From an uncultured delta proteobacterium (GTDB taxonomy: Bacteria > Desulfobacterota > Binatia > UBA9968), in the NCBI GenBank assembly GCA_963816145.1, contig CAWFJP010000031.1, positions 288,001 through 352,000 on the forward strand: a DNA stretch of 64,000 bases, read 5' to 3'. A program made the translations under genes and the position numbers. Shown piece by piece: positions 15,456 through 43,361 of this stretch (positions are counted from its first letter, which is position 1; each line of letters opens with the position of its first letter). The notes under the pieces are model-generated. The model did not search any database. It saw nothing but the letters and a program-made list of their open reading frames with translations, and was not told the DNA's origin.

Positions 15456-15579
15456 GCACTATCGATGCCGCTCTCGAACAGGCGCGAAAGCGCCGTTTGC
15501 CGTTAGATTACTGGCGCATGATAATGAACACGGAGAGAACGCTCGACCAAATCGTCGCGCTTTTCGACCAATTAGTAAG
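15456..15579 (-). promoter_or_regulatory. Tandem enhancer (15543-15579) plus sigma54 promoter CGGCAT-CGATA-GTGC (module A)
   Basis: CTTAC-TAATTG-GTCGA-AAAGC-GCGAC-GATTTG-GTCGA, 72-bp gap, GG-N10-GC. Confidence 0.75.
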
Positions 15580-15722
15580 GATCTGACTTGGGCGAACGGC
15601 AAAATAAAGCTTGAGATGTTTTAACCCGACTGAGTCGTTCTCGGCAGGATGGATCGTCAGCTGTGATAATGGCTCAAAACTATCGCCCGACGGCAAGCTG
15701 CATTAGTGAATCGCGAAGGACA

Positions 15723-15869
15723 TCAGAGACGACGCTCTTGCAAGACATCGATCGCCAGCGTCATCAGCGCAAAAAACAGCGGAAGATGAATGAATCCGCC
15801 AAGAGCGGGTAACGTCGCCAACCCCAAAGCCCAGCTGACCATGAGAATTAAAAAGACAGTCCACAGCAT
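15723..15869 (-). CDS. lmo0937-family membrane microprotein (48 aa)
   Basis: MLWTVFLILMVSWALGL...GGFIHL; AAGGAG RBS. Confidence 0.8.
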   Translation of the reverse strand: MLWTVFLILMVSWALGLATLPALGGFIHLPLFFALMTLAIDVLQERRL

Positions 15870-15944
15870 TTTCGGCTCCTTTCCGAACAATTGCCCGCCT
15901 ATTTCTTGTCGCTCCGAGCATATTACTGAACTGTGACTGAAGTC

Positions 15945-15987
15945 AGGATACGCGTTGCCCACGGGATTTGCTGTGCAAAAGTAGACA
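15945..15987 (-). promoter_or_regulatory. CRP-like dyad TGTCT-ACTTTT-GCACA plus -10 gcgTATCCT (21-bp gap)
   Basis: Motif family member oriented toward the lmo0937-like gene. Confidence 0.7.
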
Positions 15988-16121
15988 ACGGAGCAAGTAA
16001 TGACGGCAGTATCGATTACTTGGATGAATGAGGCTTGCTAGCATCGAATCATCTCATCGCCGCGGAGGCAATTTTTCAAATTCCAGTTCTAGTCGATACC
16101 GAGCCAGTGCGGCAAGGGCGG

Positions 16122-16164
16122 TGTCTAATATTGGACGGTCTTCAGAGACTTTTTGGCGTATTCT
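16122..16164 (+). promoter_or_regulatory. CRP-like dyad TGTCT-AATATT-GGACG plus -10 gcgTATTCT (21-bp gap)
   Basis: Motif family member upstream of hsp20-lon. Confidence 0.78.
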
Positions 16165-16200
16165 GAAACATGTGAATTTGCCGGAGGAGGTTCAGATTTT

Positions 16201-16632
16201 ATGTCAGCGCAAGATTGGGATGTCATGGTCTGGCGGCGAGCTAACGAATTGCTCCAGCAGGCGGAGCGCATCCACCGGAATTTTTTACAAATCGCCGCTA
16301 CATCCCAATACCGGGCACCGCATGGCCGAGCACCGAGCTGGCAACCTCCGGTTAGTGTCGTCGAGACGGACGAAAACCTGTGGGTGATTTTAGGCCTCGC
16401 TGGGGTTGCGGTTGACGGCGTCGACGTACGGCTGGAGGGCAGCGATTTGGTGATCGCCGGCGAACGACGGCTACCCCAATGCTTCAATGAAGGGGAACTT
16501 AAGCTATGGGAGATCCCATTCGGTCGTTTTGACCGGCGACTCAGGTTGGTTGGTTGGGAGAATCCTCTCTCAGTGGGAGAGATTTCGTTTCAGGATGGGT
16601 TACTCACCATTCAGATTAGGAAGCAATCATGA
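16201..16632 (+). CDS. Hsp20/alpha-crystallin small heat-shock protein
   Basis: WQPPVSVVET, LVIAGER, EIPFGRFDR, DGLLTI; GGAGGAGG RBS. Confidence 0.9.
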   Translation: MSAQDWDVMVWRRANELLQQAERIHRNFLQIAATSQYRAPHGRAPSWQPPVSVVETDENLWVILGLAGVAVDGVDVRLEGSDLVIAGERRLPQCFNEGELKLWEIPFGRFDRRLRLVGWENPLSVGEISFQDGLLTIQIRKQS

Positions 16633-19037
16633 GCGCGGAAGAACTGCCGCTGTCAAAGTCGAAACCTCGTTTCCATATTCCCGAGGGCGCATTGATAATC
16701 ATACCGATGCGCAACCGGGTGCTTTATCCGTCCATGGTCATGCCGCTGATGGTCGACCGCCCGGCGCGGCTCCAAGCTGTCGAAGAAGCCGTGCGCCAAC
16801 AACTACCCATCGGTTTTATCGTGCAACGCGATCCACATATGGAAGCTCCTCAACCCAAAGAGCTATACGGCATCGGCACTGCCGCGGATGTCTTGCGCAT
16901 GTTTACCCTGCCGGACGGCCGGCGGCAGGTGATCGTGCAAGGCCGGCGCCGATTCGTGATCGACGAATTCATCGAAACCGATCCCGTGCTGATTGCGCGG
17001 GTCACCATGGTGGAAGAACCGGTACCACAGACCAAGGAGTTCGCGGCGCGCATCTTGCATTTGCGTCAAGAAGCCGCTCGGGCATTGTCACTATTCCCTG
17101 AACCCATGAACGAACTGCGAGCGATGATCGAAAGGATGGAAGATCCTTTGTCGGTCATCGATGTGATCGCCTCCACCCTGGACCTGCCGACCGCGGAGAA
17201 GCAAGAGGTCTTGGCGATCCTCGACCCAGAGACGCGTGCCCAAAAAGTTTCGGAAAAGTTGGCGCGTCAGATCGAATTGCTCGAGCTGAGCCGGAAGATC
17301 GGCGACGAAACCAAGGTCTCCATGGACAAGTCGCAGCGCCAATATTTTCTGCGCGAGCAATTGAAGGCTATTCAAAAAGAACTCGGTGAGGAAGACGGCA
17401 AGGGCGTCGAAGTTGAAGAGCTGCGCAAAAGATTTTTCGAGGCCAAGATGCCGCCCGATGTTGAGAAGGAAGCGTTCAAAGAACTCAATCGGTTCGAGCG
17501 TATTCCCGAGATGGCCCCTGAACATTCGTTGTTGAGAACCTATTTCGACTGGTTGGCCGATCTGCCTTGGAGCGTTGTCACCAAGGAAGAGATCGACCTG
17601 CCCAAAGCCCGTGAAATTCTCGACGCCGACCATTACGGCCTGGAAAAAGTGAAAAAGCGCATCATCGAGTTTCTCGCCGTTCGCAAACTGAAACCGGAAG
17701 GGAAAAGTCCGATCCTGTGCTTGGTCGGTCCGCCGGGCGTTGGCAAGACATCCCTGGGTCAAAGTATCGCCAGGGCGATGAATCGTAAGTTCGTGCGCCA
17801 AAGTCTCGGCGGCGTCCATGATGAGGCAGATATCCGCGGCCACCGGCGGACTTACGTCGGGGCGCTCCCTGGTAACATTATTCAGGCCATCCGCAAGGCC
17901 GGTAGTAGAAATCCCGTCTTCATGTTGGATGAGGTTGACAAGCTCGGCGCTAGTTTCCATGGCAACCCTTCCGCGGCATTGCTGGAGGTTCTCGATCCGG
18001 CTCAAAATGCTACTTTTCAAGACCATTACCTAGCGGTCCCTTTCGATTTAACTCAGGTATTGTTTATCGCCACGGCGAACCTGCTCGATAACGTGCCAGG
18101 TCCGCTCCGCGATCGTATGGAAATTTTGGAATTGCCGGGCTACATCGAAGACGAGAAGCTGGCGATTGCCAAGGGATACTTGGTTCCTCGGCAGATTAGT
18201 GAAAATGGACTCAAACCCAGGGATATTGACTTTACCGACGATGGCATTCGGGAAACAATTCGCTCATATACCCGTGAGGCCGGTGTCCGGCAACTTGAGC
18301 GGCAATTGGCCGCGATCTGCCGCAGTGTGGCAATGCGCGTTGCCGAAGGAATGACGCAAACCATAACAGTCACTGCGGAATCTCTCCATGACTACTTGGG
18401 ACCGCAAAAGTTTTTCAATGAGATCGCCCTGCGCACCAGCTTGCCGGGAGTGGCAACCGGCCTGGCCTGGACGCCGTTCGGCGGCGATATATTGTTTGTC
18501 GAAGCGACCAAGATGCCTGGAGACGGCAAGTTGATTTTAACCGGCCAGTTGGGCGAGGTCATGAAAGAAAGCGCGCAAGCGGCTTTGAGTCTGGTCAAAT
18601 CTCGCGCCGACACACTCGGCATCGATGCCGACATCTTCAAGAAAAACGACCTGCACATTCATCTTCCGGCGGGCGCTATTCCCAAGGATGGCCCCAGCGC
18701 TGGGATCACACTGTTCGTCGCGCTCGTATCGCTTTTAACCGGACGGCACATCAGCAAAGATATCGCCATGACCGGTGAGATCAGCCTGCGCGGTTTGGTG
18801 CTGCCGGTAGGCGGGATCAAAGAAAAAATGCTGGCAGCAAAACGGGCGGGGATTACTTGTGTCCTGTTACCCGAGCTAAATCGCAGAGACTTGGAAGAAA
18901 TTCCTATCACGGGCCGCAGCGGCATCCGCTTTGAGTTTTTGAAAACCGCCGACGAGGCTTTGGGGCTAGCCCTGGAACCGAAAACACCCAGTGGTTTTTT
19001 TGCCAGTGAGGGTCTCGCCGCTCGGTCTGTCTGCTGA
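16629..19037 (+). CDS. lon: ATP-dependent protease La
   Basis: LON N domain, GPPGVGKTS, PKDGPSAG catalytic Ser, GGIKEK; ATGA overlap with hsp20. Confidence 0.97.
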   Translation: MSAEELPLSKSKPRFHIPEGALIIIPMRNRVLYPSMVMPLMVDRPARLQAVEEAVRQQLPIGFIVQRDPHMEAPQPKELYGIGTAADVLRMFTLPDGRRQVIVQGRRRFVIDEFIETDPVLIARVTMVEEPVPQTKEFAARILHLRQEAARALSLFPEPMNELRAMIERMEDPLSVIDVIASTLDLPTAEKQEVLAILDPETRAQKVSEKLARQIELLELSRKIGDETKVSMDKSQRQYFLREQLKAIQKELGEEDGKGVEVEELRKRFFEAKMPPDVEKEAFKELNRFERIPEMAPEHSLLRTYFDWLADLPWSVVTKEEIDLPKAREILDADHYGLEKVKKRIIEFLAVRKLKPEGKSPILCLVGPPGVGKTSLGQSIARAMNRKFVRQSLGGVHDEADIRGHRRTYVGALPGNIIQAIRKAGSRNPVFMLDEVDKLGASFHGNPSAALLEVLDPAQNATFQDHYLAVPFDLTQVLFIATANLLDNVPGPLRDRMEILELPGYIEDEKLAIAKGYLVPRQISENGLKPRDIDFTDDGIRETIRSYTREAGVRQLERQLAAICRSVAMRVAEGMTQTITVTAESLHDYLGPQKFFNEIALRTSLPGVATGLAWTPFGGDILFVEATKMPGDGKLILTGQLGEVMKESAQAALSLVKSRADTLGIDADIFKKNDLHIHLPAGAIPKDGPSAGITLFVALVSLLTGRHISKDIAMTGEISLRGLVLPVGGIKEKMLAAKRAGITCVLLPELNRRDLEEIPITGRSGIRFEFLKTADEALGLALEPKTPSGFFASEGLAARSVC

Positions 19038-19137
19038 CAAATAAATCAGCGAATCGACCCAGCGGTTCTTCCTCACGGGGAAATGAAAATGGACAGTTGA
19101 ATCGATCGAGCTGGGATTGATCACAAGGAGGTACGTC

Positions 19138-19611
19138 ATGCTCAAACGGATTATCGGCCGGGATACTCAAGAGATTTCAGCGTCGGACCAGCATTGGTTG
19201 AACGTGGATGCTTTGGCGCAAGTGGAGGTAACCTCGGAGGACGCGGCGCATCCGATCGAGTCCGGATTGCTACCGGGGACCGCATCCGGTTGGCGCGCTG
19301 CGCACCCCGGACCGCAGACCGTGCGTCTGGTGTTTGACCAGCCGCAGCGAATCAAGCGTATCCATTTAGAGTTCCACGAAGATGAGTTGGCGCGTACTCA
19401 GCAATTTGTCCTGCGCTGGTCGTCAAACCGCGGGCAGTCCTATGGGGAAATCGTCCGTCAGCAGTACAATTTCAGCCCGCCCGCCACGACCCGCGAGTGC
19501 GAGGATTACTCCGTAGATCTCGACGGCGTGACCACACTCGAACTGAGCATCGTTCCAGAGATCAGCGGCGGGCCTGCCCGCGCATCGCTCGCCCAGTTAC
19601 GAGTTGCATGA
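19138..19611 (+). CDS. Galactose-binding-domain-like (discoidin fold) protein
   Basis: VEVTSED..HPIE, GWRAA.PGPQTVRLVFD, IVRQQYNFSP; AGGAGG RBS. Confidence 0.7.
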   Translation: MLKRIIGRDTQEISASDQHWLNVDALAQVEVTSEDAAHPIESGLLPGTASGWRAAHPGPQTVRLVFDQPQRIKRIHLEFHEDELARTQQFVLRWSSNRGQSYGEIVRQQYNFSPPATTRECEDYSVDLDGVTTLELSIVPEISGGPARASLAQLRVA

Positions 19612-19668
19612 GTGCCGAGAAACTCTGTCAAAGTGCGGTTGGCGCACAAGAGGGAAGGTTACAAACCT

Positions 19669-20019
19669 ATGTTGGTATTACTGGTTGCAGTGATTTCCGG
19701 GATCGCGATTGCTTATTTTGGCATGCAAAACATTAGCCCCGTCACGATCCGGCTTAACGAATATGTCTGGAACGATGTGCCCTTGTATCTGGTCATCGTC
19801 GGTTCGTTGTTTGTTGGCTTGTTCATCGCGTGGATTCTCTATTTTGCCAGGTCGGTGTCTTCGACCTTGACCATATTTGGAAAAGATCGCGCGATGAAAA
19901 AAGCCAAACATACGGTCGCCGGCCTAGAGCAGAGGGTTCGGGAACTTGAAGCAGAGACGGCTCGACTCAAAGCCATGGACTTGCTTCCGTCTGAAATGCC
20001 GCACCGCAAGTTGTCGTAG
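19669..20019 (+). CDS. LapA/DUF1049-family membrane protein
   Basis: AYFGMQN..PVTI, VPLYLVIVGSLFVG, coiled-coil tail. Confidence 0.78.
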   Translation: MLVLLVAVISGIAIAYFGMQNISPVTIRLNEYVWNDVPLYLVIVGSLFVGLFIAWILYFARSVSSTLTIFGKDRAMKKAKHTVAGLEQRVRELEAETARLKAMDLLPSEMPHRKLS

Positions 20020-22118: not shown

Positions 22119-22242
22119 CCGACCTTTTGGTCGAAGTCTCCGACGCTTTCGCCGTGCCTGCTCTCGGATTCACCGCCATACAGCTCGGAATGGTTGAGTA
22201 TTATCACATTCGTCTGGCGCCAAGGGGCGGCACAACAGTTGC
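22119..22242 (+). promoter_or_regulatory. Tandem enhancer (22119-22155) plus sigma54 promoter CGGCAC-AACAG-TTGC (module B)
   Basis: CCGAC-CTTTTG-GTCGA-AGTCT-CCGAC-GCTTTC-GCCGT, 72-bp gap. Confidence 0.8.
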
Positions 22243-22289: not shown

Positions 22290-23180
22290 ATGAAGAGATT
22301 ACGATCAGTTCTATCGCCGATGGTTACGACAGCGGGGATCTTGGCCTTGTCGGGTGCGGTTTTAGCTCAATCACCCAGCGAGTCCCACCGTGCTGCGAGC
22401 GCGCGGGCGCATGAAATTATGTCCAGTGCGCCTTGTCCGTTGCCCAGAGTTACCAAGGAAAAGATCACCGAAGACGAGGGGCGGGATTTAGCCCAAGCCT
22501 TTGCCGACAAAAACATGAACGGCTTTAGAGTCGTGCGGCCGTTGGGTTACGGCGGCGGTTACACGACGATGTGTTACCAGACCGCCAACGGCGCTCCGAC
22601 ACGGCCGCTGGTGTTATACTCTGTGGAGTATTCCATGGATCTAAAAAACCCAGCAGGTGAAACGCGCAATCTGTGCGTCGATCAATACGGCACGGTGAGC
22701 GAGTTCTGCAGCGATTTCGGCTTCGCGGGCGCAACCGGCCCGGCTGGTCCGATCGGCCCCATGGGCGCACAAGGTCCGGCGGGACCAATGGGCCCTCAGG
22801 CGACGGCTGCTGCTGAGGTAAGGAAATGGTCCTCGTTCAACAACATTCTGTTCGATTTCGACATGTCGGTCATTCGGTCCGACGAGACGAGCAAGGTAAC
22901 CGATATCGCGGCCTACTTGAAGCAGAATCCGACCGCCCGCGTGGGCATCGACGGCCACACCGATCCGCGCGGCACCGACGCTTACAACCAGGGCCTGAGC
23001 GAACGCCGTGTCAACGCCATTAGTGAGGCGCTGGTGACAGCCGGCGTGGCGACTGGCAAGATCCACACAGGCGCTTTCGGTGAGTCACAGCTCAAATGCC
23101 ATGAATCCACCGAGGCTTGCTGGCAGAGCGACCGTCGAGTCGAAGTGTTGATCGGCAACGCCGACATCGCCAGCCGATAA
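22290..23180 (+). CDS. Secreted OmpA-C domain protein with collagen-like G-X-Y linker
   Basis: Signal peptide; GATGPAGPIGPMGAQGPAGPMGPQ; ILFDFD, GHTDPRGTDAYNQGLSERR, DRRVE. Confidence 0.88.
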   Translation: MKRLRSVLSPMVTTAGILALSGAVLAQSPSESHRAASARAHEIMSSAPCPLPRVTKEKITEDEGRDLAQAFADKNMNGFRVVRPLGYGGGYTTMCYQTANGAPTRPLVLYSVEYSMDLKNPAGETRNLCVDQYGTVSEFCSDFGFAGATGPAGPIGPMGAQGPAGPMGPQATAAAEVRKWSSFNNILFDFDMSVIRSDETSKVTDIAAYLKQNPTARVGIDGHTDPRGTDAYNQGLSERRVNAISEALVTAGVATGKIHTGAFGESQLKCHESTEACWQSDRRVEVLIGNADIASR

Positions 23181-23302
23181 CCGCCAAGATCGATAGCTCT
23201 GGCAGAGCAGGTCTGAACTGCTGGAGCATCAAACTCACGCAACGACCCCTGGGACCAACCGGCTCTGGGGGTTGTTACGTATTAGCGAGCAATCGTGGTT
23301 TA

Positions 23303-25045
23303 ATGCTTTCCTCCATGCGCAAGTCGTTTTTACCGAGCCACTTTGTCGCTTTGGGAATGCTGGTCCTGATTTTGGTATCCCTCTACGGATTCATAGAGGC
23401 TCGCAGACTCAAGCGAGAATTCTTGCGCCAGACCGAAGACAAAGGCGTGGCATTGGCCAGCGCGATGGCGGCTGGCGTTACAAACGCTATCGTCGGCAAT
23501 GTTCCCTTGGAGAAGCAGATCGAGCAGCGCCTTTTGGCGAACGCCCGGTTAATCGACCAACTGCTCCTCACTCGCCGTGTCGATCAAGCGCTGCTCATGG
23601 AGGTCAGCACGCAAAATCGCTTACAAAAAATCGATCTCCTCGATCCGCAGGGCCAACCCAAAGAGATTTCCTCTCTGCAGGCGATGATCGCAAGGAAAGA
23701 CCAAGGCGTTGACCTCCCGCAGGAACGCGAACCGACGTTGATCTATATGTGGGGAAAGCGTTTGCGTTCGCAAGAGGCGAAACCTGCGAACCCGGTTATC
23801 AATCTACCGACCCGAATCACGGCAAATGAGTTTTGGAAAGGCAGCGCAATTGGCGTCGCTGTCGTCGCCCGCAGTTTTCCCGGGATCATCGCGGTCCACG
23901 CCAACGCTGACTATATTTTGAACTTCGACAAAGAAATCGGTTTGCAAAATCGAATCCAGGAGTTGGGCAGCGCAGCGGAGGCTGAGTTTGTCGCGCTTCT
24001 CGATAGCAACTTCAATGTCGTTGCTCATACGGACATGAGCCGGATCGGACAACGGGAAAAAGACACCCTTGTTTTGTCCGCCAACGGCGATCGTCAACTT
24101 TTGAGCCAAATCGTCGAGAGCAGCGGAGGGAAAGAGTACTTGGAAGTGGTCAAACCCGTTGCGTTGTATCAATCCAATATGGGATTCCTGAAAGTTGGGA
24201 TTTCCCTGGGGTCGATGGAGATCGCTTGGCGCAACAGCTTGCGTGCGATTCTCATTCTGGGAATAGCGATCTTCGCCGTGGGCATGCTCGGAATGGCGGC
24301 GATTTTCCATAATCAGAACTCCCATCTGCGACATGTCAAAGGTTTGGAAATCGAAGTGTTACATCGAGAACGCCTTTCAGCAATGGGCGATGTGGCTGCG
24401 GCGGTCGCTCATGAGGTGAGAAATCCGCTCAATGCCATCTCCATGGGTCTGCAGCGTCTGAAAATGGAATTTAAGCCCAGCGATGACCAGGAGGACTACT
24501 CTCGTCTCACCGGTTTAATGCTGGGTGAAGTGCACCGTCTGAACTCGATCGTCGAGCAGTTCCTCGCGCTGGCGCACCCTGTTGAGATCAAACCTGAGCC
24601 CTTGCCGTTGCCGGAAGTCCTGAAAGAGCTAGCAGCGTTACAAGACGGCACCGCGAGAGATTCGAATGTGCGCATCCAAGTAATAGCGGCGCCCAATACG
24701 CCGCCGCTCATGGCCGATCCCGCTCATCTAACCCAAGTGCTGATGAACCTCATGCTCAACGGTTTGCAAGCGATGCCCGACGGTGGAACCTTGACACTGG
24801 AGGCGAAAGCTTTGAACGGCAAATGTCGCATCGCGGTGGCGGATACCGGAGCCGGGATCGCGCCGGAAAACCAGCGGCGAATTTTTGAACCTTACTTCAC
24901 GACTAAGGTAAAGGGCACCGGGCTGGGTCTGGCGATCTCGCGCAGGATTATCGAAGCCCACGGCGGAACGCTCACTGTTACCAGTAAGGTGGGTCAAGGA
25001 TCCCGCTTCGAGATTTCATTGCCGCTCAACCGTGCGGAGGTGTAA
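23303..25045 (+). CDS. Membrane sensor histidine kinase (ZraS/AtoS-like)
   Basis: Two TMs flanking a large periplasmic domain; AHEVRNPL H-box, N, G1 DTGAGI, F FEPYFTTK and G2 GTGLGL boxes. Confidence 0.92.
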   Translation: MLSSMRKSFLPSHFVALGMLVLILVSLYGFIEARRLKREFLRQTEDKGVALASAMAAGVTNAIVGNVPLEKQIEQRLLANARLIDQLLLTRRVDQALLMEVSTQNRLQKIDLLDPQGQPKEISSLQAMIARKDQGVDLPQEREPTLIYMWGKRLRSQEAKPANPVINLPTRITANEFWKGSAIGVAVVARSFPGIIAVHANADYILNFDKEIGLQNRIQELGSAAEAEFVALLDSNFNVVAHTDMSRIGQREKDTLVLSANGDRQLLSQIVESSGGKEYLEVVKPVALYQSNMGFLKVGISLGSMEIAWRNSLRAILILGIAIFAVGMLGMAAIFHNQNSHLRHVKGLEIEVLHRERLSAMGDVAAAVAHEVRNPLNAISMGLQRLKMEFKPSDDQEDYSRLTGLMLGEVHRLNSIVEQFLALAHPVEIKPEPLPLPEVLKELAALQDGTARDSNVRIQVIAAPNTPPLMADPAHLTQVLMNLMLNGLQAMPDGGTLTLEAKALNGKCRIAVADTGAGIAPENQRRIFEPYFTTKVKGTGLGLAISRRIIEAHGGTLTVTSKVGQGSRFEISLPLNRAEV

Positions 25046-26470
25046 ATGCCAAATCGTTTTCACATTCTGGTCGTCGATGACGAACCGGCGCAGCGCGAGG
25101 TGATCTCGGGCTTTCTGCGCAAGCAAGGCTTTGAAGTGGTAACGGCCGATAGCGGGGAGCGCGCCTTGGAACTCTTTCGTCAGGACGCCTTTGATCTGAT
25201 TCTGACCGATCAAAAGATGGCTGGCATGACTGGCTTGGATCTGATGCAAGCGGTGCACACCATTAATTCGGACACGCCGGTCATCTTAATTACCGCTTTC
25301 GGCACCATCGCAGCCGCCGTGGCTGCCCTTAAAAAAGGCGCCATCGATTATCTGACCAAACCGTTAAATTTGGAAGAACTGTTGCACCGCATTCGACTAG
25401 TCAGCGACCGCTACCGAATTCTCACCGAGAACCGCGAGTTGCGGGAAGCGTTAGGGGAGCGACATCGTATCGAGGGCATCATCGGCGAGAGCGGGCCGAT
25501 GCTTGAAGTTCTTTCTATGGTGCGCCGGGTCGCGCCGAGTGAAGCGACGGTATTGATCCGGGGTGAGAGTGGCACGGGGAAAGAGCTGATTGCCCAGGCC
25601 ATTCACCATGGTAGCCCAAGAGCGCGCGGCCCCCTGATCAAGGTTAACTGCGCGGCGCTGCCTGAAGCGCTACTCGAATCGGAATTGTTCGGCCACGAGA
25701 AAGGTGCATTTACCGGGGCGACAGCGTCGCGCCAAGGACGTTTTGAGCTGGCCAACGGCGGGACGATCTTTCTCGATGAAATCGGCGACCTGCCGTTGCA
25801 TTTGCAGGCGAAGCTCCTGCGCGTGCTGCAAGAGAGGGAATACGAGAAGGTTGGCTCCAGCCGTCCAGTCAAGGTCAACGTCCGAATCCTCGCCGCCAGC
25901 CATCGGCCGCTGGAAGCGCTCATCAAAGCGGGACAATGGCGCGAGGATCTTTACTACCGGCTCAACGTTGTGACGATTCTTCTTCCGCCACTGCGCGAGC
26001 GGCGCTCCGATCTATCGCTGCTGATCGACCACTTCGTGCGCCACTTTGCCGAGAAGAACGGCAAGAAGATCGCCGGTCTGACGGACGCAGGTCGAGATAT
26101 TCTTTTGCGCTATGACTATCCGGGAAATGTCCGGGAGCTGGAAAATATTATTGAGCGCGCCGTAGTTCTCACCAGGGACGATGTGATTGGCCGCGGCGAT
26201 CTGCCGATCACGGTTCAAGAACTTGAAGCCATAGACGACGACGACGAACCCAACCTTGCCATCGCAGTTGAACGGGTGGAGCGCCGGATGATCCGGGAAG
26301 CGCTGGCGCGCTTCGAAGGGGTCCAAACCCGCGCCGCAGAGCGGCTTGGAATCAGTGAACGGGCGTTGCGCTATAAACTGATCAAATACGGCTTTCGTGA
26401 AGAAGCCTCAGATGTCGATGCCGATCCGCAAGCTAAATCTCCGCAAGAAAGTTCTGACCCGCAGGATTAA
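25046..26470 (+). CDS. NtrC/ZraR-family sigma54 enhancer-binding response regulator
   Basis: Receiver domain, GESGTGKE, ESELFGHEKGAFTGA, FLDEIG, Fis-type HTH QTRAAERLGISERALRYKL. Confidence 0.95.
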   Translation: MPNRFHILVVDDEPAQREVISGFLRKQGFEVVTADSGERALELFRQDAFDLILTDQKMAGMTGLDLMQAVHTINSDTPVILITAFGTIAAAVAALKKGAIDYLTKPLNLEELLHRIRLVSDRYRILTENRELREALGERHRIEGIIGESGPMLEVLSMVRRVAPSEATVLIRGESGTGKELIAQAIHHGSPRARGPLIKVNCAALPEALLESELFGHEKGAFTGATASRQGRFELANGGTIFLDEIGDLPLHLQAKLLRVLQEREYEKVGSSRPVKVNVRILAASHRPLEALIKAGQWREDLYYRLNVVTILLPPLRERRSDLSLLIDHFVRHFAEKNGKKIAGLTDAGRDILLRYDYPGNVRELENIIERAVVLTRDDVIGRGDLPITVQELEAIDDDDEPNLAIAVERVERRMIREALARFEGVQTRAAERLGISERALRYKLIKYGFREEASDVDADPQAKSPQESSDPQD

Positions 26471-26657: not shown

Positions 26658-26749
26658 GCGATCCCTGCCGATCCCCGATTAAGTGTATAAACGAAAAAGG
26701 CAGGCTCCGACCCAATCATCACGATTGATAAGGCTTGTTCGGAGGAGAG

Positions 26750-27154
26750 TTGTTGTCAAAGAAAATACTGGTTGTTGAAGATTCTTGTGATCTACGGGAG
26801 CTGCTGGGAAGCGGTCTCGCGTCATTGGGCTGGAACCCCATTCTTGCTGAGAGCGGCCGAGAATCGCTGGCAAAACTTGAGTGTGAAACTCCGAGCGTTA
26901 TTCTCATGGACAAGGGCTTAGGTGATATGAACGGCTTCGAGCTCGCGGCGGTTCTAAAACGGCACCCTGTTTATAAAAGAATCCCGATTCTGGGAACGAC
27001 CGCGTTTCCCGGTTGTCTAGTCCGGCAGCATTGTCTTGCGGCGGGCTGCGATGATTTCATTTCCAAGCCCTTCGGCTTTGCCGCGCTTCATAGGCGACTG
27101 ACGCAGCTAGTATACGGCGAACGATCGAGCACGGCGGTGGCAGCCGGGCTATGA
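26750..27154 (+). CDS. Single-domain response regulator (receiver), paralog 1
   Basis: VVED, ILMD phospho-Asp, DDFISKP; GGAGGAG RBS before TTG. Confidence 0.85.
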   Translation: MLSKKILVVEDSCDLRELLGSGLASLGWNPILAESGRESLAKLECETPSVILMDKGLGDMNGFELAAVLKRHPVYKRIPILGTTAFPGCLVRQHCLAAGCDDFISKPFGFAALHRRLTQLVYGERSSTAVAAGL

Positions 27155-27264
27155 CATTGCCGTCGAATCGCGGACGTAGCTTCAAGGGAATCTGACCGCT
27201 GGTTAAATCGTTATTGACGAGCGTCAGGACCGCGTGGAATCCATCGGCAATTTTTTTTTAAGCT

Positions 27265-27307
27265 CGTTCAATACTAGACAGAAACCGTTTGCTACTCAGC
27301 GTACACG
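27265..27307 (+). promoter_or_regulatory. CRP-like dyad CGTTC-AATACT-AGACA plus gcgTACACG (21-bp gap)
   Basis: Motif family member upstream of receiver paralog 2. Confidence 0.65.
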
Positions 27308-27364
27308 TACCGGGCCAGACTCGATAGTCATCATCAGGATGAGTACGTCTGGTTCGGAGGAGAT

Positions 27365-27835
27365 ATGCTGACTTCGAGGAAAATACTGATTGTCGAAGAT
27401 CGCGGTGATCTTCTCGATCTTTTAGGCGAAGCGCTAGGCCTCTTGGGGTGGGAGACCATCCTTGCCGAGAGTGGCCGCGAAGCAATGAACAAACTTGAGG
27501 ACGACTTGCCCAGCGTCGTTTTTTTGGACTTGGGAACGCCTCTGATGAACGGCATCGAGTTGGCAGCCTCTCTCAAAGCGCATCCTGTCTATAAAGATAT
27601 ACCGATTCTTGCGGCGAGTGGCCGTTCCGGCGAACTGATCCGCAAGCTCTGCCTTGCGGCAGGCTGTGACGATTTCATATCTAAGCCGCTCGTGTTTGCC
27701 GAGCTGGAAATGCGTCTTAACAGTCTATGGTTCTTGGAGAGACGAAAAATAATTTGCGCAGGCGAACCGGTGAATTTGGCATCTGATGGCTGGAAACTAA
27801 ATGCGCGCGGCGGCAGTCGTCGCAAAGTCGCTTAG
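27365..27835 (+). CDS. Single-domain response regulator (receiver), paralog 2
   Basis: IVED, VFLD, DDFISKP; clearly homologous to the 26750 gene. Confidence 0.87.
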   Translation: MLTSRKILIVEDRGDLLDLLGEALGLLGWETILAESGREAMNKLEDDLPSVVFLDLGTPLMNGIELAASLKAHPVYKDIPILAASGRSGELIRKLCLAAGCDDFISKPLVFAELEMRLNSLWFLERRKIICAGEPVNLASDGWKLNARGGSRRKVA

Positions 27836-30474: not shown

Positions 30475-30596
30475 CTGACTATTTAGTCGAAAGTCTCGAC
30501 GCTTTCGCCGAGCGTTCTTTGATTGGTTTATCTTGACGGTTAAAAAATCTTTCCGAACATCTAGCTTTTTCCTCTGGTCTCTCGGCGGTTTATTGC
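30475..30596 (+). promoter_or_regulatory. Tandem enhancer (30475-30511) plus degenerate sigma54 promoter CGGCGG-TTTA-TTGC (module C)
   Basis: CTGAC-TATTTA-GTCGA-AAGTC-TCGAC-GCTTTC-GCCGA; 71-bp gap; GG-N9-GC is one base short. Confidence 0.62.
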
Positions 30597-30686: not shown

Positions 30687-30938
30687 TTGCCTTTGGTTCA
30701 AATCGTATTGGTCCTGATCGTGGTGGGTATTCTCCTCGGGCTGATCAATCGCTACATACCGATGGCGGGATCTATTAAGTCGATGTGGTCAAGTAGTTCC
30801 CAATCAATCGTTGCCTATGGGCAAAGGAAGCAAGTGTTACGCGGCGAAGTACAGAAAGCGTTTGAACGGCTAGGCTACTTTCAGGATCCTGAGCCGAATA
30901 CCGTCGTTGAACTTGGGATTCGAATGAGTCCGAAGTGA
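30687..30938 (+). pseudogene. Chimeric ORF: Thivi_2564-like membrane protein N-terminus fused to the C-terminus of a 31141 paralog
   Basis: MPLVQIVLVLIVVGILLGLINRYIPMAGSIKS then WSSSSQSIVAYGQRKQVLR, matching WSSNPQLIVAYEQRREMLR of the next gene. Confidence 0.65.
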
Positions 30939-30983: not shown

Positions 30984-31107
30984 TCGACGATTTGGTCGAA
31001 GTGTTCGACGTCGCCGACGAGCATATCGTTTCGGCCCGTTTATCATGCAAATATTGCCTTGCAATCTCCAGCATCTTCCCCGCGTCAAGCTCTGGCACGT
31101 GTTCTGC
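30984..31107 (+). promoter_or_regulatory. Tandem enhancer (30984-31020) plus sigma54 promoter TGGCAC-GTGTT-CTGC (module D)
   Basis: TCGAC-GATTTG-GTCGA-AGTGT-TCGAC-GTCGCC-GACGA, 72-bp gap. Confidence 0.8.
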
Positions 31108-31140: not shown

Positions 31141-31365
31141 ATGAAGAAAATCATTGAAATCCACGGTCAGCGGGTCGAACTCTACAGCCGAGACGAGGGC
31201 CGCACCTGGTCGAGCAATCCGCAATTAATTGTCGCCTATGAGCAACGCCGGGAGATGTTGCGCTTGGAGATACAACAGAAGTTCGCACGGATAGACGATA
31301 TGCAGGCATCGAAGCGCTACGGCTCCCATGGATTCGAGATGTCAAGCCGAGTGTCTTCATGGTGA
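31141..31365 (+). CDS. Small hypothetical protein (74 aa)
   Basis: AAGGAG RBS, ATG 31141, directly downstream of module D; paralogous fragment upstream. Confidence 0.72.
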   Translation: MKKIIEIHGQRVELYSRDEGRTWSSNPQLIVAYEQRREMLRLEIQQKFARIDDMQASKRYGSHGFEMSSRVSSW

Positions 31366-33981: not shown

Positions 33982-34105
33982 CCGACCATTTGGTCGACAG
34001 TTTCGACGCTAATGGCTAGCGGTTTCTTGATTTTCCTCTGTCAGCCTTACGAAGTGATCGAAAATAAAGACTTTTCCCCGTTGGAAGGCCTGGCACCGAT
34101 CGTGC
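33982..34105 (+). promoter_or_regulatory. Tandem enhancer (33982-34018) plus sigma54 promoter TGGCAC-CGATC-GTGC (module E)
   Basis: CCGAC-CATTTG-GTCGA-CAGTT-TCGAC-GCTAAT-GGCTA, 72-bp gap. Confidence 0.8.
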
Positions 34106-34147
34106 GCTGCTAATACGTAGAATCAACGAAACGGAAAAGGAGTGACT

Positions 34148-34228
34148 ATGGATACTTTATTGATCGTTCTCATCGTGTTGTTTGTACTCGGCGGTGGCGG
34201 TTGGGGATATTCTCGCTGGCGCCGGTAG
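34148..34228 (+). CDS. 26-aa membrane microprotein, DUF3309-like (not in ORF track)
   Basis: MDTLLIVLIVLFVLGGGGWGYSRWRR; AAGGAG RBS; first gene after module E. Confidence 0.75.
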   Translation: MDTLLIVLIVLFVLGGGGWGYSRWRR

Positions 34229-34520: not shown

Positions 34521-34563
34521 TAACCACTCAAAAAACCCATACTGAATGACGGAGGAATGCTCG

Positions 34564-35094
34564 ATGAACCAAGACATTTTTGCAGGGCAATGGAAGCAAA
34601 TGCGCGGCGAGTTGAAATCGTGGTGGGGCAGACTCGCCGATGACGACTTGGAACGAATCGGCGGTCACAAAGACCAGCTTATCGGTTTAGTGCAGGAGAA
34701 ATACGGTTACGCCCGCGAGCATGCCGAGCAAGAGGTGGAGCGGCACCTCAAAGAGTTTAGCGACAAAACGGATGGAGCCGTCGCCAATATGACTGCCAAG
34801 GCGCAGGAGCTTGGTACGGCTGCCGCGAACAAGGCCAACGAAGCGGCCACAGTCGTCGGCGAGAAAATCGGTTCGCTGGCGCATGTGATTCGGGAAAATG
34901 CTCCGCACGACGGACCGGTGGCAACCGCGGCGACTGTGGTAGTCGATGGGCTGGAATCTACAAGCTCTTACTTGCGCGAGAAAAAATTCGACCATCTGGC
35001 AAAAGACGTCACGGCTTTGGTCCGCAGCTATCCTGTGCGAGCGTTACTGATCGCTGTCGGCCTTGGCTATTTGCTGGGTCGGCGCCCGAGATAA
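34564..35094 (+). CDS. CsbD-domain protein with ElaB/YqjD-like C-terminal anchor
   Basis: MNQDIFAGQWKQMRG...LVQEKYG; C-terminal VRSYPVRALLIAVGLGYLLGRR; GGAGG RBS. Confidence 0.88.
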   Translation: MNQDIFAGQWKQMRGELKSWWGRLADDDLERIGGHKDQLIGLVQEKYGYAREHAEQEVERHLKEFSDKTDGAVANMTAKAQELGTAAANKANEAATVVGEKIGSLAHVIRENAPHDGPVATAATVVVDGLESTSSYLREKKFDHLAKDVTALVRSYPVRALLIAVGLGYLLGRRPR

Positions 35095-36241: not shown

Positions 36242-36365
36242 TCGACCTTTTGGTCGAGAGTCTCGACGCTTTTAACGAGCCATCTGTTAAATGCAACCAG
36301 CCCGCCTCAATAAGCTCTCGGAAACATGGTCTTTCCCTTGCCGTAATGTTCGGCACAGATAGTGC
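36242..36365 (+). promoter_or_regulatory. Tandem enhancer (36242-36278) plus sigma54 promoter CGGCAC-AGATA-GTGC (module F)
   Basis: TCGAC-CTTTTG-GTCGA-GAGTC-TCGAC-GCTTTT-AACGA, 72-bp gap. Confidence 0.82.
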
Positions 36366-36414: not shown

Positions 36415-36561
36415 ATGCGGTCGATCATTTTCGCAGGAGTTATGTTGTTGCTGTTAGGCACGAACGTGGCTTGCAACACGGTTCATGGTGTCGGGCAAGA
36501 CATCGAGCGGGCGGGCGAAAAGACTCAGGACGCGGCGGACGCCGTGAAGAAAAAATTGTAG
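36415..36561 (+). CDS. Entericidin EcnA/B-family lipoprotein (48 aa, not in ORF track)
   Basis: MRSIIFAGVMLLLLGTNVACNTVHGVGQDIERAGEKTQDAADAVKKKL; ACNT..G.G.DI..G motif; AGGAG RBS. Confidence 0.88.
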   Translation: MRSIIFAGVMLLLLGTNVACNTVHGVGQDIERAGEKTQDAADAVKKKL

Positions 36562-38572: not shown

Positions 38573-38614
38573 AGTATCGCCAGCCAGTTTTATAGAAGGA
38601 TAAGGACCTAAAAA

Positions 38615-38788: not shown

Positions 38789-38846
38789 CCATTTCGTCTC
38801 AAAGACGAAGGAATAAATACGATGCGTCTTAAATCCGATAACGCTT

Positions 38847-39053: not shown

Positions 39054-39213
39054 CGGCAAGGCAGCGCCGCACCGAGGAAGTAACTGCGCGGCGAAAGCGA
39101 CCGAGGGGCGAGCTGCACTACCTTGAACGGGAAGCAGGTCGACGGGGCGAGTTGGCATTGTAGGAGTCCTGTCGCGGCGATTGGGCTAGGAATACAGATG
39201 ATCTGGAGAAATC

Positions 39214-40434
39214 ATGAACCACGGTGCCATCGCTGGAACGCATCGTCGAATCGCCATGCTCGGCAATCACTTGCCGCGCCAGTGCGGTATCGCTACCTTT
39301 ACGACCGACCTCAGCGGCGCGATCGCCGCGGAGGTCTCTAACGCCGATTGTATGGTGGTTGCGATGAACGACGCCGGTAAACAGTACGCGTATCCCCCGC
39401 GGGTTCGTGTAGAGGTGGCCGAGGGCGACATCGGGTCGTATAACCGGGCAGCCGATTATTTGAACGCTAACAAGATCGACGTCGTGTCCGTGCAGCACGA
39501 GTATGGCATTTTCGGCGGCAAGGCCGGTAGCTACTTACTCACGTTTCTGCGCAAGTTGCGCATGCCGATCGTGACCACCCTTCACACCGTCCTCGGCAAG
39601 CCGGATTCCATGCAGCGTCGAGCCATGAACGAGATCACCCGACTCTCGAAGCGACTCGTTGTCATGAGCGCCCATGGCGCCGTCCTGCTTCATAATGTTC
39701 ACGGCGTGCCTGAGCACAAAATCGATACCATCCCGCACGGGATTCCGAGCGTGCCTTACGGATCAAGCACTAAGAAAGAACTCGGGTTCAAAGGTAAGTC
39801 GGTGATTTTTACCTTCGGACTGCTATCGCCGGATAAAGGCATCGAGCATGTGATCGATGCCCTGCCGGCGATTCTTGTGCGGTATCCCAACACGATTTAC
39901 GTCGTCCTCGGCGCTACCCATCCACATGTCAAAGAGCGCTATGGGGAAAGCTACCGCGAAAGCCTAGAGCTTCGGGCACAAGAACTCGGGGTGGCATCGA
40001 GCGTGATCTTTCACAACCGTTTCGTGAGCCGCGGTGAGCTCGTCAAGTTTCTCGCGGCCGCCGACATCTATGTCACGCCGTACCTCAAACCGGAACAGAG
40101 CACGTCCGGGACATTGGCCTATGCGGTAGGCTCGGGCAAGGCGGTCATTTCCACGCCTTATATTTATGCCCGGGAACTCCTCGCCGATGGGCGCGGGATA
40201 CTGGTACCGTGGCGAGATTCGCAGACCATCACCCGCGCGGTGGTGGATCTCTTGGGCGACGATGTAAAACGAGCCGCCCTCTGCGCCCGTGCCGCCGCTC
40301 ACGGCCGCAGCATGGTCTGGCCCGCGGTGGCGCGTCGCTACCTGCAGAGCTTCGACCGGGCATGCAGTCGAGAACAATCGATGCCTCGGGTTGGCCTGGA
40401 ATTAGACGATCGAGATCGCCGGGTCTTAACTTAA
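39214..40434 (+). CDS. Glycosyltransferase family 4, possibly C-terminally truncated
   Basis: GNHLPRQCGIATFT, QHEYGIFGG, TFGLLSPDKGIE, SGTLAYA.GSGKAVISTPY. Confidence 0.88.
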   Translation: MNHGAIAGTHRRIAMLGNHLPRQCGIATFTTDLSGAIAAEVSNADCMVVAMNDAGKQYAYPPRVRVEVAEGDIGSYNRAADYLNANKIDVVSVQHEYGIFGGKAGSYLLTFLRKLRMPIVTTLHTVLGKPDSMQRRAMNEITRLSKRLVVMSAHGAVLLHNVHGVPEHKIDTIPHGIPSVPYGSSTKKELGFKGKSVIFTFGLLSPDKGIEHVIDALPAILVRYPNTIYVVLGATHPHVKERYGESYRESLELRAQELGVASSVIFHNRFVSRGELVKFLAAADIYVTPYLKPEQSTSGTLAYAVGSGKAVISTPYIYARELLADGRGILVPWRDSQTITRAVVDLLGDDVKRAALCARAAAHGRSMVWPAVARRYLQSFDRACSREQSMPRVGLELDDRDRRVLT

Positions 40435-40475
40435 GAAACTGGCGAGACGCAAAAACTCAATTGGAGGTTTACTCA

Positions 40476-41129
40476 ATGAACAGTCTCTCTGTATATCAAA
40501 CCGCACACATGAAATATCCGTATACCCTGCCTACGATCGAGTATGCGTATGACGCACTCGAGCCGTACATTGACGAGCCAACGATGCATTTGCACCATGA
40601 CAAGCATCATCAGGCTTATATCGATCACGCCAATGAAGCGGTCGGCAAATATCCTGAGCTGCAGAAAACCGATCTAGTGACCCTATTGGCTAACCTTAGC
40701 GATTTGCCTGCCGATATCAGGACGCCGCTGCAAAGCAATGGCGGCGGCCACCTCAACCATGCGTTATTCTGGGAATACATGACGCCACGGGGTGGCGGCG
40801 AGCCTCAGGGCAAGCTACTCCAGGCGATTATAAAGACATTTGGCGGATTCGCTCATTTTAAAGAAGAATTTGATGCCGCTGCTAGAAATCGCTTGGGCAG
40901 CGGATGGGCTTGGCTTACCGTGACGCCTACGGGGGACTTGGAGACTAGTTCAACGCCAAACCAAGATACTCCGTTATCAAACGGTCAACTGCCGATTTTA
41001 GCTCTCGATGTCTGGGAACACGCGTATTATCTCAAGTATCACAACCGGCGGCCCGAATACATTACGAACTGGTGGCACGTGGTGAACTGGAAAAAGGTCC
41101 AGGAACAGTTCGACAAAATTACCGGTTAG
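40476..41129 (+). CDS. sodA: Superoxide dismutase, Mn-type signature
   Basis: HHDKHH, NGGGHLNH, GSGWAWL, PNQD, DVWEHAYY; GGAGG RBS. Confidence 0.92.
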   Translation: MNSLSVYQTAHMKYPYTLPTIEYAYDALEPYIDEPTMHLHHDKHHQAYIDHANEAVGKYPELQKTDLVTLLANLSDLPADIRTPLQSNGGGHLNHALFWEYMTPRGGGEPQGKLLQAIIKTFGGFAHFKEEFDAAARNRLGSGWAWLTVTPTGDLETSSTPNQDTPLSNGQLPILALDVWEHAYYLKYHNRRPEYITNWWHVVNWKKVQEQFDKITG

Positions 41130-41600
41130 CCGGGCCGCAAAACACCCGACGCTTAACTGCGGTTTTAGAGTGAAAGGAACATCGACGTCAATACCAGCCG
41201 CAGCGATAATCAGATCGAAACTTCATTGGGAGGCCTTAGATAGCTGCCGTCAGCGAATGCACCTTTGAATATGCCGCCGATACCAGGAAAGCCTATGGTC
41301 TCGCCCATCTGGTTTTGGTTGAGTTGCTGAAAAAGGTTAGTTTCGGAAGCAAAAGCCGCGAACGGTACGTTCCCGGAACCCTGCTGCAGCATTGAGTAGG
41401 TGTCACTGCGCAATAATGCCCGATAGGGATAATCTAATATAAGTCCTTCTTTTCGCAGATTGATGACTTAACGAACGATTACAACGTCTAAGAGGGTGTG
41501 GCCCAGCAAAAGTAACGGCACCGAGGATAGCGACTCGTGGCAGTGTTCACGATCGCGCATTATCTCAAACTTACGCACCCGAGTCTGCAGGAGGAGAACC

Positions 41601-42647
41601 ATGAAAAGTAATATCGTAAATCGGATGGTGATGGCACTTGTCATCAGCACTCTGGCGATGCCGGGGATCGGCCTTGCGGCCGAAGGGCAGCAAAACGTGC
41701 AGGAAGAGCAAAAACGCGCAAAGGATGAAAAGCAGCAACAGCGAAAGGAAAATCAGCAGCAGGATCAGGTTCAAAGAAAAGCTGAACAAGATCAGAAGCA
41801 ACAGCAACAACGCGCTCAGCAACAGGAAAAGCAGCAAGCGCAAAAGCAGCAAGCGCAAAAGCAGCAGCAAGTCCAGCAGCAGCGCGAGCGCGCGCAGCAA
41901 CAATCAGAACAAGACCAGAAAGAAATACGCGCGTGGCAGGAGCAGCAGCGCGAGCGGATTGAGCGCCAGTCGGAACAAATCGAGCAGCAGCGCGCGCAGC
42001 AACAGAAGCAATACCAAATTCAGGAACAGAGACAACAACAGCGTCTGTCCCAGCAGCAGCAACAACAGCGGATCAAAGAGCAGCAACAAAGTGTCGCGCA
42101 GTACCGCCAACATCTGGAACAGGAGGAGCGTCTCGCACGAGAGCATGCAGCGCAACTACAGCAACAAAGGCGCATGGCCCAGTATCGCTTTCAAGAAGAG
42201 TATCTAGAGCGCCTACGGCAGCAGAATAACTACCTGCGGGACCATCGGTTCGACTACGATAATGACCCGTATTTCTACACCCCGCCGATCTATCGTTACA
42301 ATCGTGGCGGCAAGTACTATCAAATCAACGAATATGGTGCGAAGTGGTTACGCCAGGCGGTCAGATATGGTTATGAAGAAGGTTTCCGCGCCGGCAAGGC
42401 AGACCGCGAAGACCGTTGGCGTGGCGGCAGTTACAAAGACTCATATGCTTATAGGGACGCAAACTATGGTTATAACGGCTATTACGTAAACCGGAGCGAT
42501 TACAACTACTACTTCCGTGAGGGTTTCCGACGCGGTTATGAGGATGGTTACAATAGCCGCTATCAATATGGCCGCTTTGATAACGGAAACTATTCGATCT
42601 TGGATAACATTTTGTCACAAATCCTCGGTTTCCAGAATCTTCGCTAA
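41601..42647 (+). CDS. Secreted Gln-rich coiled-coil protein with Tyr/Gly/Arg/Asn-rich C-terminus
   Basis: AGGAGGAG RBS, signal peptide (GLA-AE), long Q/E/R/K tract, repeated GY..GF..G motifs. Confidence 0.82.
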   Translation: MKSNIVNRMVMALVISTLAMPGIGLAAEGQQNVQEEQKRAKDEKQQQRKENQQQDQVQRKAEQDQKQQQQRAQQQEKQQAQKQQAQKQQQVQQQRERAQQQSEQDQKEIRAWQEQQRERIERQSEQIEQQRAQQQKQYQIQEQRQQQRLSQQQQQQRIKEQQQSVAQYRQHLEQEERLAREHAAQLQQQRRMAQYRFQEEYLERLRQQNNYLRDHRFDYDNDPYFYTPPIYRYNRGGKYYQINEYGAKWLRQAVRYGYEEGFRAGKADREDRWRGGSYKDSYAYRDANYGYNGYYVNRSDYNYYFREGFRRGYEDGYNSRYQYGRFDNGNYSILDNILSQILGFQNLR

Positions 42648-42658
42648 CCAATGGTCAT

Positions 42659-42692
42659 CTATGCCTCGGGGTTGCGCAACCCCGAGGCATAG
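42659..42692. repeat. Perfect 34-bp palindrome CTATGCCTCGGGGTTGCGCAACCCCGAGGCATAG (terminator-like)
   Basis: Self-complementary along its whole length; 11 bp after the stop of the Gln-rich gene; no U-tract. Confidence 0.7.
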
Positions 42693-42709
42693 CTCGCCAA
42701 CCCAGAGCG

Positions 42710-43023
42710 GCGCGCATTTTGGACTGCTGTCAATGAACGCGATGGAATCGCCAGCGACCTGTGCTGCTTTCGATACTCGGCGATGGTTATGGATGGCGTC
42801 TGGGCAACCGTGGGAAGCACGAACCTTTATTACCGTTCCCTCGCCATCAATGAAGAAACTCAATCTTGCCGTCAACGACGCAGGTGTCGCTGCGCAACTC
42901 GAGAAAACTTTTCAGGAAGATCTGCAGCATGCTAAAAAGTTGACTTACGAAGCTTGGGAGTCGTGTCCCTTGAACGGTAAGATCCCGGAATTGTTTTCCA
43001 TCCCGATCAAAGAGCAGTTGTAG
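42710..43023 (+). pseudogene. C-terminal remnant of cardiolipin synthase (PLD family)
   Basis: MVMDGVWATVGSTNLYYRSLAINEE, then a frameshift near 42857 into LNLAVND...FQEDL...KEQL; HKD motif degenerate. Confidence 0.75.
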
Positions 43024-43236
43024 GCAGCGCCGCCTTTATCGTACGGCATTCTTCTCGGTAGCGCTGCTTTTGCTCAACTCAGGCTTGCGCAGGATCGTTG
43101 GTTACAGCGCATCCAGCACCGGCTTCGGACGTCGGCTCGACCGCGACCGCCGGCGTTTTCCGACTCGCTGCTGCAACCGGCCTGGCGCAACATGTGGACT
43201 GCGCCTGGACTCATGCCTCACATAACTCGCTGTGAC

Positions 43237-43361
43237 TCGACCTTCTGGTCGATCGTTTCGACTCTTTCACCGACCTCGACCTCATTCCGCTTCTGGCCCT
43301 ATCGATAATCCCTAACGAAATCGAGTTCCTCCAGCTTTCCGAAGCGTGGCACGTAAGTTGC
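43237..43361 (+). promoter_or_regulatory. Tandem enhancer (43237-43273) plus consensus sigma54 promoter TGGCAC-GTAAG-TTGC (module G)
   Basis: TCGAC-CTTCTG-GTCGA-TCGTT-TCGAC-TCTTTC-ACCGA, 73-bp gap. Confidence 0.85.

Follow-up and report, generated by a model that had tools for sequence, protein, structure and literature searches.

A predicted sigma54 regulon with six tandem-dyad enhancer modules at a near-constant promoter distance in a Candidatus Binatia genome

The DNA examined here is a 64,000-nucleotide stretch (the window) of contig CAWFJP010000031.1 from an uncultured bacterium of the Binatia. It contains a 28-kb gene island in which a 37-bp upstream activating sequence (UAS), comprising two tandem TCGAC-N6-GTCGA dyads, recurs ahead of sigma54-type −24/−12 promoter elements. 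By in silico analysis throughout, we find that the island carries six intact, functional-looking sigma54 modules and not seven, with the enhancer located about seven DNA turns upstream of the six promoters. The dyad pair tracks one clade of enhancer-binding proteins, defined by the recognition helix [ST]ERxLRYK, in Candidatus Binatia and several other phyla. As a whole, the observations are best explained, with good though not complete confidence, by a self-contained sigma54 regulon that would be activated through DNA looping, wherein an autoregulatory promoter was copied and its helical phase was kept.

Results

An earlier first-pass annotation had described seven 37-bp elements with dyads spaced 21 bp center to center, and all seven were found at the same positions and with the same pitch (Table 1). 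The 3′ half of the second dyad is usually degenerate. A promoter element had been proposed at 71 to 73 bp from every copy. This holds for six of them, which are followed by a GG-N10-GC element at a gap of 72 bp (five modules) or 73 bp (module 7), but not for the copy at 30475, where a GG-N9-GC element without GGCAC is present. Although the 30475 copy has the highest score of all UAS copies with a position weight matrix (PWM) made from the window, its best sigma54 score is −2.1 and its promoter misses the very pattern that the annotation had put forward. The −24/−12 spacing is strict in sigma54 promoters, and because the spacing here is N9, this module is probably dead.

The enhancer copies are not chance occurrences. 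With the seven-copy PWM, they score 39.8 to 51.8, compared to 25.4 for the next genome match, a difference that is inflated by training. When leave-one-out PWMs were used, six of the seven copies were equalled or beaten by just five to seven genome positions, which are the window copies themselves, whereas the 15543 copy ranked with 16 genome positions. Matches to the sigma54 PWM (score of 8 or higher) occur at 0.0005 per position, and finding five more in the same 2-bp window would have a probability of about 1e-15 if the copies were independent; this figure is overstated because they share common descent. A symmetric dyad model applied to the entire 7.8-Mb genome returned as its top seven modules the six in the window and one preceding a paralogous activator gene on contig C4, all with gaps of 72 to 74 bp and scores of 26.5 to 39.8, versus 22.6 for the best unrelated pairing. 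The C4 module (gap 74, pitch 20) is the best in the genome. A tandem match at 47591 lies inside a phosphoglucomutase open reading frame (ORF), lacks a promoter at the appropriate distance, and was rejected as chance. Genes of the island were also found on soil metatranscriptome contigs, mostly from relatives; loose contig ends near 34147 to 34188 put starts at about 34090 to 34140, around the predicted transcription start site (TSS) at 34117, but we do not count these as evidence.

The protein encoded at 25046 to 26470 combines a REC domain, an AAA+ domain with the GAFTGA motif, and a Fis-type helix-turn-helix (HTH), and is thus an enhancer-binding protein of the NtrC type. The genome (7.8 Mb, 99.5% complete, 6.7% contaminated) has 34 strong Sigma54_activat matches, a single rpoN gene (PF04552, 212.6 bits, contig C11), and genes for IHF alpha, IHF beta, and an HU-like protein. 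Among 28 listed activator ORFs (34 by hidden Markov model), the helix [ST]ERxLRYK is present in two, namely 25046 to 26470 and the C4 paralog, which is 66% identical. Orthologs of the island activator (P0038 and P0099) carry the source label Candidatus Binatia.

The co-occurrence of motif and activator was examined in three collections. Of 25 genus-level genomes, 10 have both a clade activator and a module, one has the activator only (65% complete), a module but no clade activator is found in two (88% and 60% complete), and the remaining 12 lack both. Modules are therefore present in 10 of 11 genomes with a clade activator versus two of 14 without (Fisher p 0.0002, with kin that are not independent). 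Eighty metagenome loci picked by the HTH alone yielded 29 modules in 25 loci and none in three base shuffles, even though many contigs are too short to reach the promoter. Among 45 loci from three other groups, 24 match the helix and 13 of these have a strong module (11 within 1.5 kb and two on extension), with one further weak match. The 21 loci with nonmatching helices had no module before extension; upon extension, the near-match helix of L364 had one, and six loci with ISFRxLRYRL-type helices, which we take to be PilR-like, gave one weak match. In a tree of 49 activators (two of 51 were not extracted), support is 100/100 for the island clade and 100/99 for the paralog clade. Because the motif tracks this activator clade, the island kinase and activator (23117 to 26470) are likely the reader, and we consider 25046 to 26470 the likely activator of the modules. 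The motif and the clade also exist in Acidobacteriota, Myxococcales, and others, mostly uncultured.

Wider searches were less informative. No activator of more than 60% identity was present in the 5000 best plasmid records, and the strict pattern was absent from 299 nonfamily genomes sampled from the phylum, whose activator content was not checked. A strict-pattern scan of GTDB genomes returned at least 121 stretches, mostly high-GC chance matches over all gaps, which serve as leads only.

The activator gene is the third of an operon that begins with an exported accessory protein and a membrane sensor kinase. The true start of the kinase is probably downstream of 23180. The protein at 22290 keeps the accessory domain (alignment A2), fused to collagen and OmpA parts. 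In a model of this domain built from locus L064 (pLDDT 77.7), the top structural match is CD1622 (Z 7.7), and the YpeB C-terminal domain, YpmB, UipA, and Rv0603 match at Z 6.0 to 7.2, so that all Z values are below 8. UipA and Rv0603 are presumably PepSY proteins. The YpeB PepSY family is matched by one of 15 accessory-domain members. Family searches listed no ZraP-like family for the domain, and there was no Foldseek match at E of 0.001 or less and no usable protein-atlas match. The model thus suggests a PepSY-like domain. Two stand-alone receiver-domain genes (26735 to 27835) lie right after the activator gene and might act as relays or as sinks for phosphate.

A single module is the usual state outside the island lineage. 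In the sister families and at the paralog, the genes behind it encode an exported protein rich in Gly and Met, followed by the kinase and the activator. In family f3, the first gene encodes a protease of the DegP/HtrA type (TIGR02037, with a score above its cut-off), and the corresponding gene in Acidobacteriota, Myxococcales, and others encodes a secreted protein, often with DxDGDG-type motifs. We infer from these targets of the ancestral unit that the system originated in envelope sensing. Outside Binatia, at L301, L310, L312, L337, L350, and L353, the module often stands before an unnamed DxDGDG-type secreted protein that is possibly metal-binding.

The gap between enhancer and promoter was compared among 61 UAS matches in 40 sources. 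Fifty-six have a promoter score of at least 7, and 53 of these have gaps of 70 to 74 bp; the remaining three comprise a gap of 31, a gap of 78, and a shifted re-read of one site. At L053:13880, a strong UAS has a promoter-like element at 31 bp only, about four turns shorter, and the proximal T tract is kept. Spacer identity drops from 0.53 within target groups to 0.37 between groups and 0.28 after shuffling, which indicates that the copies share ancestry, yet the length was held while the sequence drifted. Gaps of 71 to 74 bp are also found at the C4 paralog and in sister lineages, at the activator's own single-operon promoter, and the 72-bp gap is therefore an inherited, ancestral value. Family f3 has gaps of 63 to 65 and 52, and one f2 copy has a gap of 64, about one and two turns shorter. 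For the same motif and activator clade, gaps span 52 to 130 bp, and 17 modules from outside the clade have gaps of 71, 74, 76, 76, 77, 78, 85, 87, 88, 89, 89, 96, 96, 97, 98, 100, and 130 bp. The gaps outside Binatia give a Rayleigh R of 0.57 at 10.5 bp (p about 0.004), a periodicity that is only suggestive. One UAS pair (L213:1515–1701) is flanked on either side by a sigma54 element at exactly 74 bp, and these divergent promoters face an accessory-kinase operon and a methyltransferase gene.

The spacer had been characterized as otherwise poorly conserved, which agrees with pairwise identities of 24 to 53% in the window but overlooks conserved, phased A/T tracts. Across the 53 spacers left after de-replication, recurrent A, A, and T tracts lie 39 to 40, 27 to 29, and 17 to 19 bp upstream of the −24 element, and AA/TT periodicity is strong at 10.5 to 11 bp (power of 10.95 at 10.5 bp versus at most 1.44 in shuffles). 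A register resembling an IHF site is positionally enriched near −48, in 24 of 52 spacers compared to a null maximum of 14. On the other side, the Escherichia coli consensus (WATCAA-N4-TTR) is not enriched in number, matching 20 of 53 spacers versus 19.1 when shuffled, and near-equal rival registers at 19 to 20 exist, as plain A/T tracts would give. Common descent confounds the spacer tests. At the IHF-dependent Desulfovibrio vulgaris orp2 promoter, a degenerate but functional IHF site lies at about −43, between the UAS and the promoter element (PMC3897727). The register near −48 resembles that site, but its use by IHF is a prediction that cannot be distinguished from intrinsic A/T-tract bending.

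Discussion

In the mechanism that we propose, the membrane kinase would respond to a cue of envelope or general stress and would phosphorylate the activator. It is probably tuned by the exported PepSY-like/OmpA protein that the first gene of its operon encodes. Two activator dimers may then occupy the two dyads, two turns apart on one helix face, and oligomerize as bacterial enhancer-binding proteins do. A bend near −48, where phased A/T tracts are present and IHF probably acts, would loop the activator onto sigma54-RNA polymerase at −24/−12. The outcome would be activation of its own operon, a positive feedback, and of five units encoding small envelope proteins. Tree and synteny suggest that one autoregulatory promoter with a gap of 71 to 74 bp was copied before stress genes in one Binatia lineage, and that selection then held the helical phase while the spacer sequence drifted. 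The sigma54 promoter mechanics invoked here are textbook.

The first-pass annotation had taken the constant gap as a sign of a phased DNA loop with unusually rigid geometry. The loop is plausible, but the gap equals the ancestral value and its periodicity is marginal. Conceivably, the regulon is real and the constant gap was simply inherited when the promoter was duplicated, without selection on length or phase. The ancestral gap of 71 to 74 bp, a residual spacer identity above the shuffled level, and the tolerance of this activator clade for gaps of 52 to 130 bp elsewhere all agree with such a history. So do the tests of periodicity, which, along with other results, weigh against phasing: a jitter null gives p 0.05; p becomes 0.22 once four dropped doubtful pairings (80, 155, 170, and 185) are restored; the phase outside Binatia is about 4 bp off that in Binatia; and two Binatia-type modules with a gap of 78 are out of phase. 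Nevertheless, we consider mere inheritance unlikely. The window spacers drifted to 24 to 53% identity while their length stayed within 2 bp of 72, the shifts that did occur measure 8 to 9, 20, and 41 bp within Binatia, with a further one of 22 bp separating the sister activators L350 and L353, and the divergent promoter at L213 has the same 74 bp on both sides. The 72-bp gap thus probably reflects a helical-phase constraint, although marginal periodicity, the phase offset, and the out-of-phase modules leave phasing likely but unproven.

A second matter is whether one activator suffices, as had been claimed. That the island is a sigma54 regulon is consistent with the clade co-occurrence, whereas the single activator is likely but not certain because the genome encodes a second one with nearly the same recognition helix. 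This helix of the C4 paralog, TERALRYKL, could read the island sites, and no module in the genome scores higher than the paralog's own (39.8). Also to be set against assignment of the motif to the clade are the 11 of 24 helix-matching loci from other phyla with no strong module in the DNA fetched. We nonetheless regard it as distinctly improbable that the paralog is the main or an equal activator, with two sensors feeding one regulon: the island modules co-locate with the island activator clade, and G006 (99% complete) and G015, whose best clade match is at paralog level (67 to 68%), have one module each, before the accessory gene. Far less probable still is that the modules represent a miniature inverted-repeat transposable element (MITE) or another promoter-carrying mobile repeat. 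Several copies of near-equal length do exist in one region. However, blastn with each module against the genome gave matches confined to the island and to the UAS or the −24/−12 part, none of them full-length, and 30-bp module flanks read by eye revealed no shared ends, terminal inverted repeats, or target-site duplications. Each copy precedes a gene in sense orientation and moves together with orthologous genes, and the motif follows its regulator clade across phyla. End-to-end spacer alignment, which the annotation had named as the sign of a MITE, was thus not found. Gene order is shuffled between related islands, where the DUF3309, entericidin, GGGGWG, and own-operon genes mostly keep their module. 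Some extra DUF3309-like copies in G014 (L197 and L198) have no module, which counts against the regulon.

The self-contained sigma54 regulon that we favor would work like the envelope stress system ZraP-ZraS-ZraR of E. coli and Salmonella without being a member of that system. ZraP-ZraS-ZraR likewise combines sigma54-dependent two-component control, autoregulation, and a co-regulated accessory protein in the periplasm (PMC4987338 and PMC7657598), and ZraR has three to four direct targets versus six promoters in the island. ZraS is the top NCBIfam match of the kinase and ZraR is among the top three for the activator, but equivalog scores are below cut-off (433.8 versus 760 for ZraR and 235.1 versus 479 for ZraS), and the accessory domain here is modeled as a PepSY-like alpha+beta fold.

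Rigid geometry is less unusual than had been claimed because regulons of D. vulgaris Hildenborough show near-identical spacing. These also have tandem palindromic sites about 20 bp apart and a co-localized regulator (PMC4641369). We subtracted the positions listed in its supplementary file 5 (whole) and file 3 (120 of the 128 rows for D. vulgaris). The offsets from the nearest site to the promoter are 78, 80, and 80 for DVU0539/0946, 78 and 78 for DVU1949, 77 and 78 for DVU2106, and 66/65/65 for three flagellar genes. Other regulons vary widely (57 to 472 for DVUA0057), and the biggest fraction of promoters lies 100 nt or less from a site. These rigid cases involve two to three promoters each versus six at one gap here; the [ST]ERxLRYK helix is missing from all 36 HTHs tabulated there, and TCGAC-N6-GTCGA is not among the tabulated sites. 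In Clostridiales, single-operon activators make up 65% of the total, and the others control two to six (PMC6615313). Six promoters at one gap are at the upper end, and the same in kind.

The island also encodes Hsp20, Lon, two CsbD proteins, BON, YtxH, SOD, an lmo0937-like protein, an iron permease, and glycosyltransferases. RpoS and SigB regulons share target types with this set. In the alphaproteobacterium S. granuli, csbD and ecnAB are direct general-stress targets of an EcfG system (PMC7083833). The csbD and entericidin families are likewise in the island, the latter directly behind a module, but unlike the EcfG/PhyR/NepR, RpoS, and SigB regulons, control here is predicted to be exerted by sigma54 and an activator. 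No RpoS, SigB/F/G, or NepR match reached its cut-off in the 99.5% complete genome (TIGR02394 best 292.9 versus 378.7; TIGR02980 best 135.7 versus 234.35; PF18557 no match); EcfG and PhyR were not searched. Small genes of the general-stress type thus appear to be placed under sigma54 and not under a classic stress sigma factor. More tentatively, and with doubts that outweigh our confidence, this Candidatus Binatia lineage might run its general stress response via sigma54 together with a single enhancer-binding protein of a two-component system. This would be a fourth architecture, alongside those of RpoS, SigB, and EcfG; in it, the phase-locked promoter cassette of an ancestral envelope-stress operon would have been copied before classic stress microprotein genes, and a Crp/Fnr regulator would form a second tier. 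If the stress reading holds, promoter duplication could allow a lineage that lacks the classic stress sigma factors to re-create a general stress regulon under sigma54. The findings further link an activator clade of mostly uncultured bacteria to an enhancer motif precise enough to be tested, and the natural gap series (52 to 130 bp) within one activator family provides a test set for helical-phase rules in enhancer looping. Literature searches returned no description of the motif or of a Binatia sigma54 regulon, but subscription papers, bioRxiv supplements, and RegPrecise-type databases were outside the scope of this search and a prior description is possible.

Genes and other features of the island

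The target labels of the first-pass annotation (glycine zipper, OmpA with collagen, DUF3309 twice, and entericidin) are all borne out by family matches (Table 1). Island genes that do not lie directly behind a module may be co-transcribed or under other control.

Table 1. Modules and genes of the island; gaps are from UAS to promoter element, and TSS positions are predictions, placed about 12 nt past the GC.
Feature	Position	Strand	Remarks
UAS (tandem-dyad enhancer), module 1	15543..15579	−	
−24/−12 element, module 1	15456..15470	−	CGGCATCGATAGTGC; gap 72; TSS ~15444
Glycine-zipper protein, lipoprotein-like N-terminus	15046..15393	−	Module 1 target; PF13488; lipoprotein signal judged from sequence
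UAS, module 2	22119..22155	+	Activator's own operon
−24/−12 element, module 2	22228..22242	+	Gap 72; TSS ~22254
Exported accessory protein	22290..23180	+	PepSY-like domain, collagen linker, OmpA-like C-terminal domain; PF00691, PF01391
Membrane sensor kinase	23117..25045	+	sCache-like domain; ZraS/AtoS-like but below cut-offs
REC-AAA+(GAFTGA)-HTH enhancer-binding protein	25046..26470	+	Helix SERALRYKL; likely cognate activator
UAS, module 3	30475..30511	+	Strong UAS, broken promoter
Degenerate GG-N9-GC element, module 3	30583..30596	+	CGGCGGTTTATTGC; gap 71; probably nonfunctional
Chimeric ORF	30690..30938	+	Thivi_2564-family N-terminus (NF041949 residues 2–32) and stretch like 3′ part of 74-aa gene (DNA alignment)
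UAS, module 4	30984..31020	+	
−24/−12 element, module 4	31093..31107	+	Gap 72; TSS ~31119
74-aa protein	31141..31365	+	After module 4; no significant known family; kept in related islands
UAS, module 5	33982..34018	+	
−24/−12 element, module 5	34091..34105	+	Gap 72; TSS ~34117
26-aa membrane microprotein (GGGGWG)	34148..34228	+	DUF3309-related; PF11752 22.4 bits versus cut-off 22.3
CsbD gene	34546–35094		After GGGGWG microprotein
UAS, module 6	36242..36278	+	
−24/−12 element, module 6	36351..36365	+	Gap 72; TSS ~36377
Entericidin-family lipoprotein	36415..36561	+	After module 6
111-aa lipoprotein-like ORF; M48 peptidase, BON, and YtxH genes	to 38572	+	After entericidin
UAS, module 7	43237..43273	+	
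−24/−12 element, module 7	43347..43361	+	Gap 73; TSS ~43373
DUF3309 membrane protein	43408..43557	+	After module 7
Crp/Fnr-family regulator	43630..44310	+	72 bp after DUF3309

The chimeric ORF near the broken module resembles a local duplication or deletion scar, its 3′ part being similar to the 74-aa gene of the next module. Two genes of the Crp/Fnr family are present in the window (6751 to 7434 and 43630 to 44310), and such a gene follows DUF3309 in the window and in G014, G017, and G018. A second regulatory tier formed by this regulator is possible; a scan of the island with the CRP/FNR consensus gave loose matches only. The gene at 41601 to 42647, which is kept in related islands, encodes a protein rich in Gln that looks secreted, contains Tyr/Gly repeats, and matches no family. 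Finally, two adjacent ORFs at 53795 to 54601 match the first and second halves of Hydrolase_4 and are probably one split gene.

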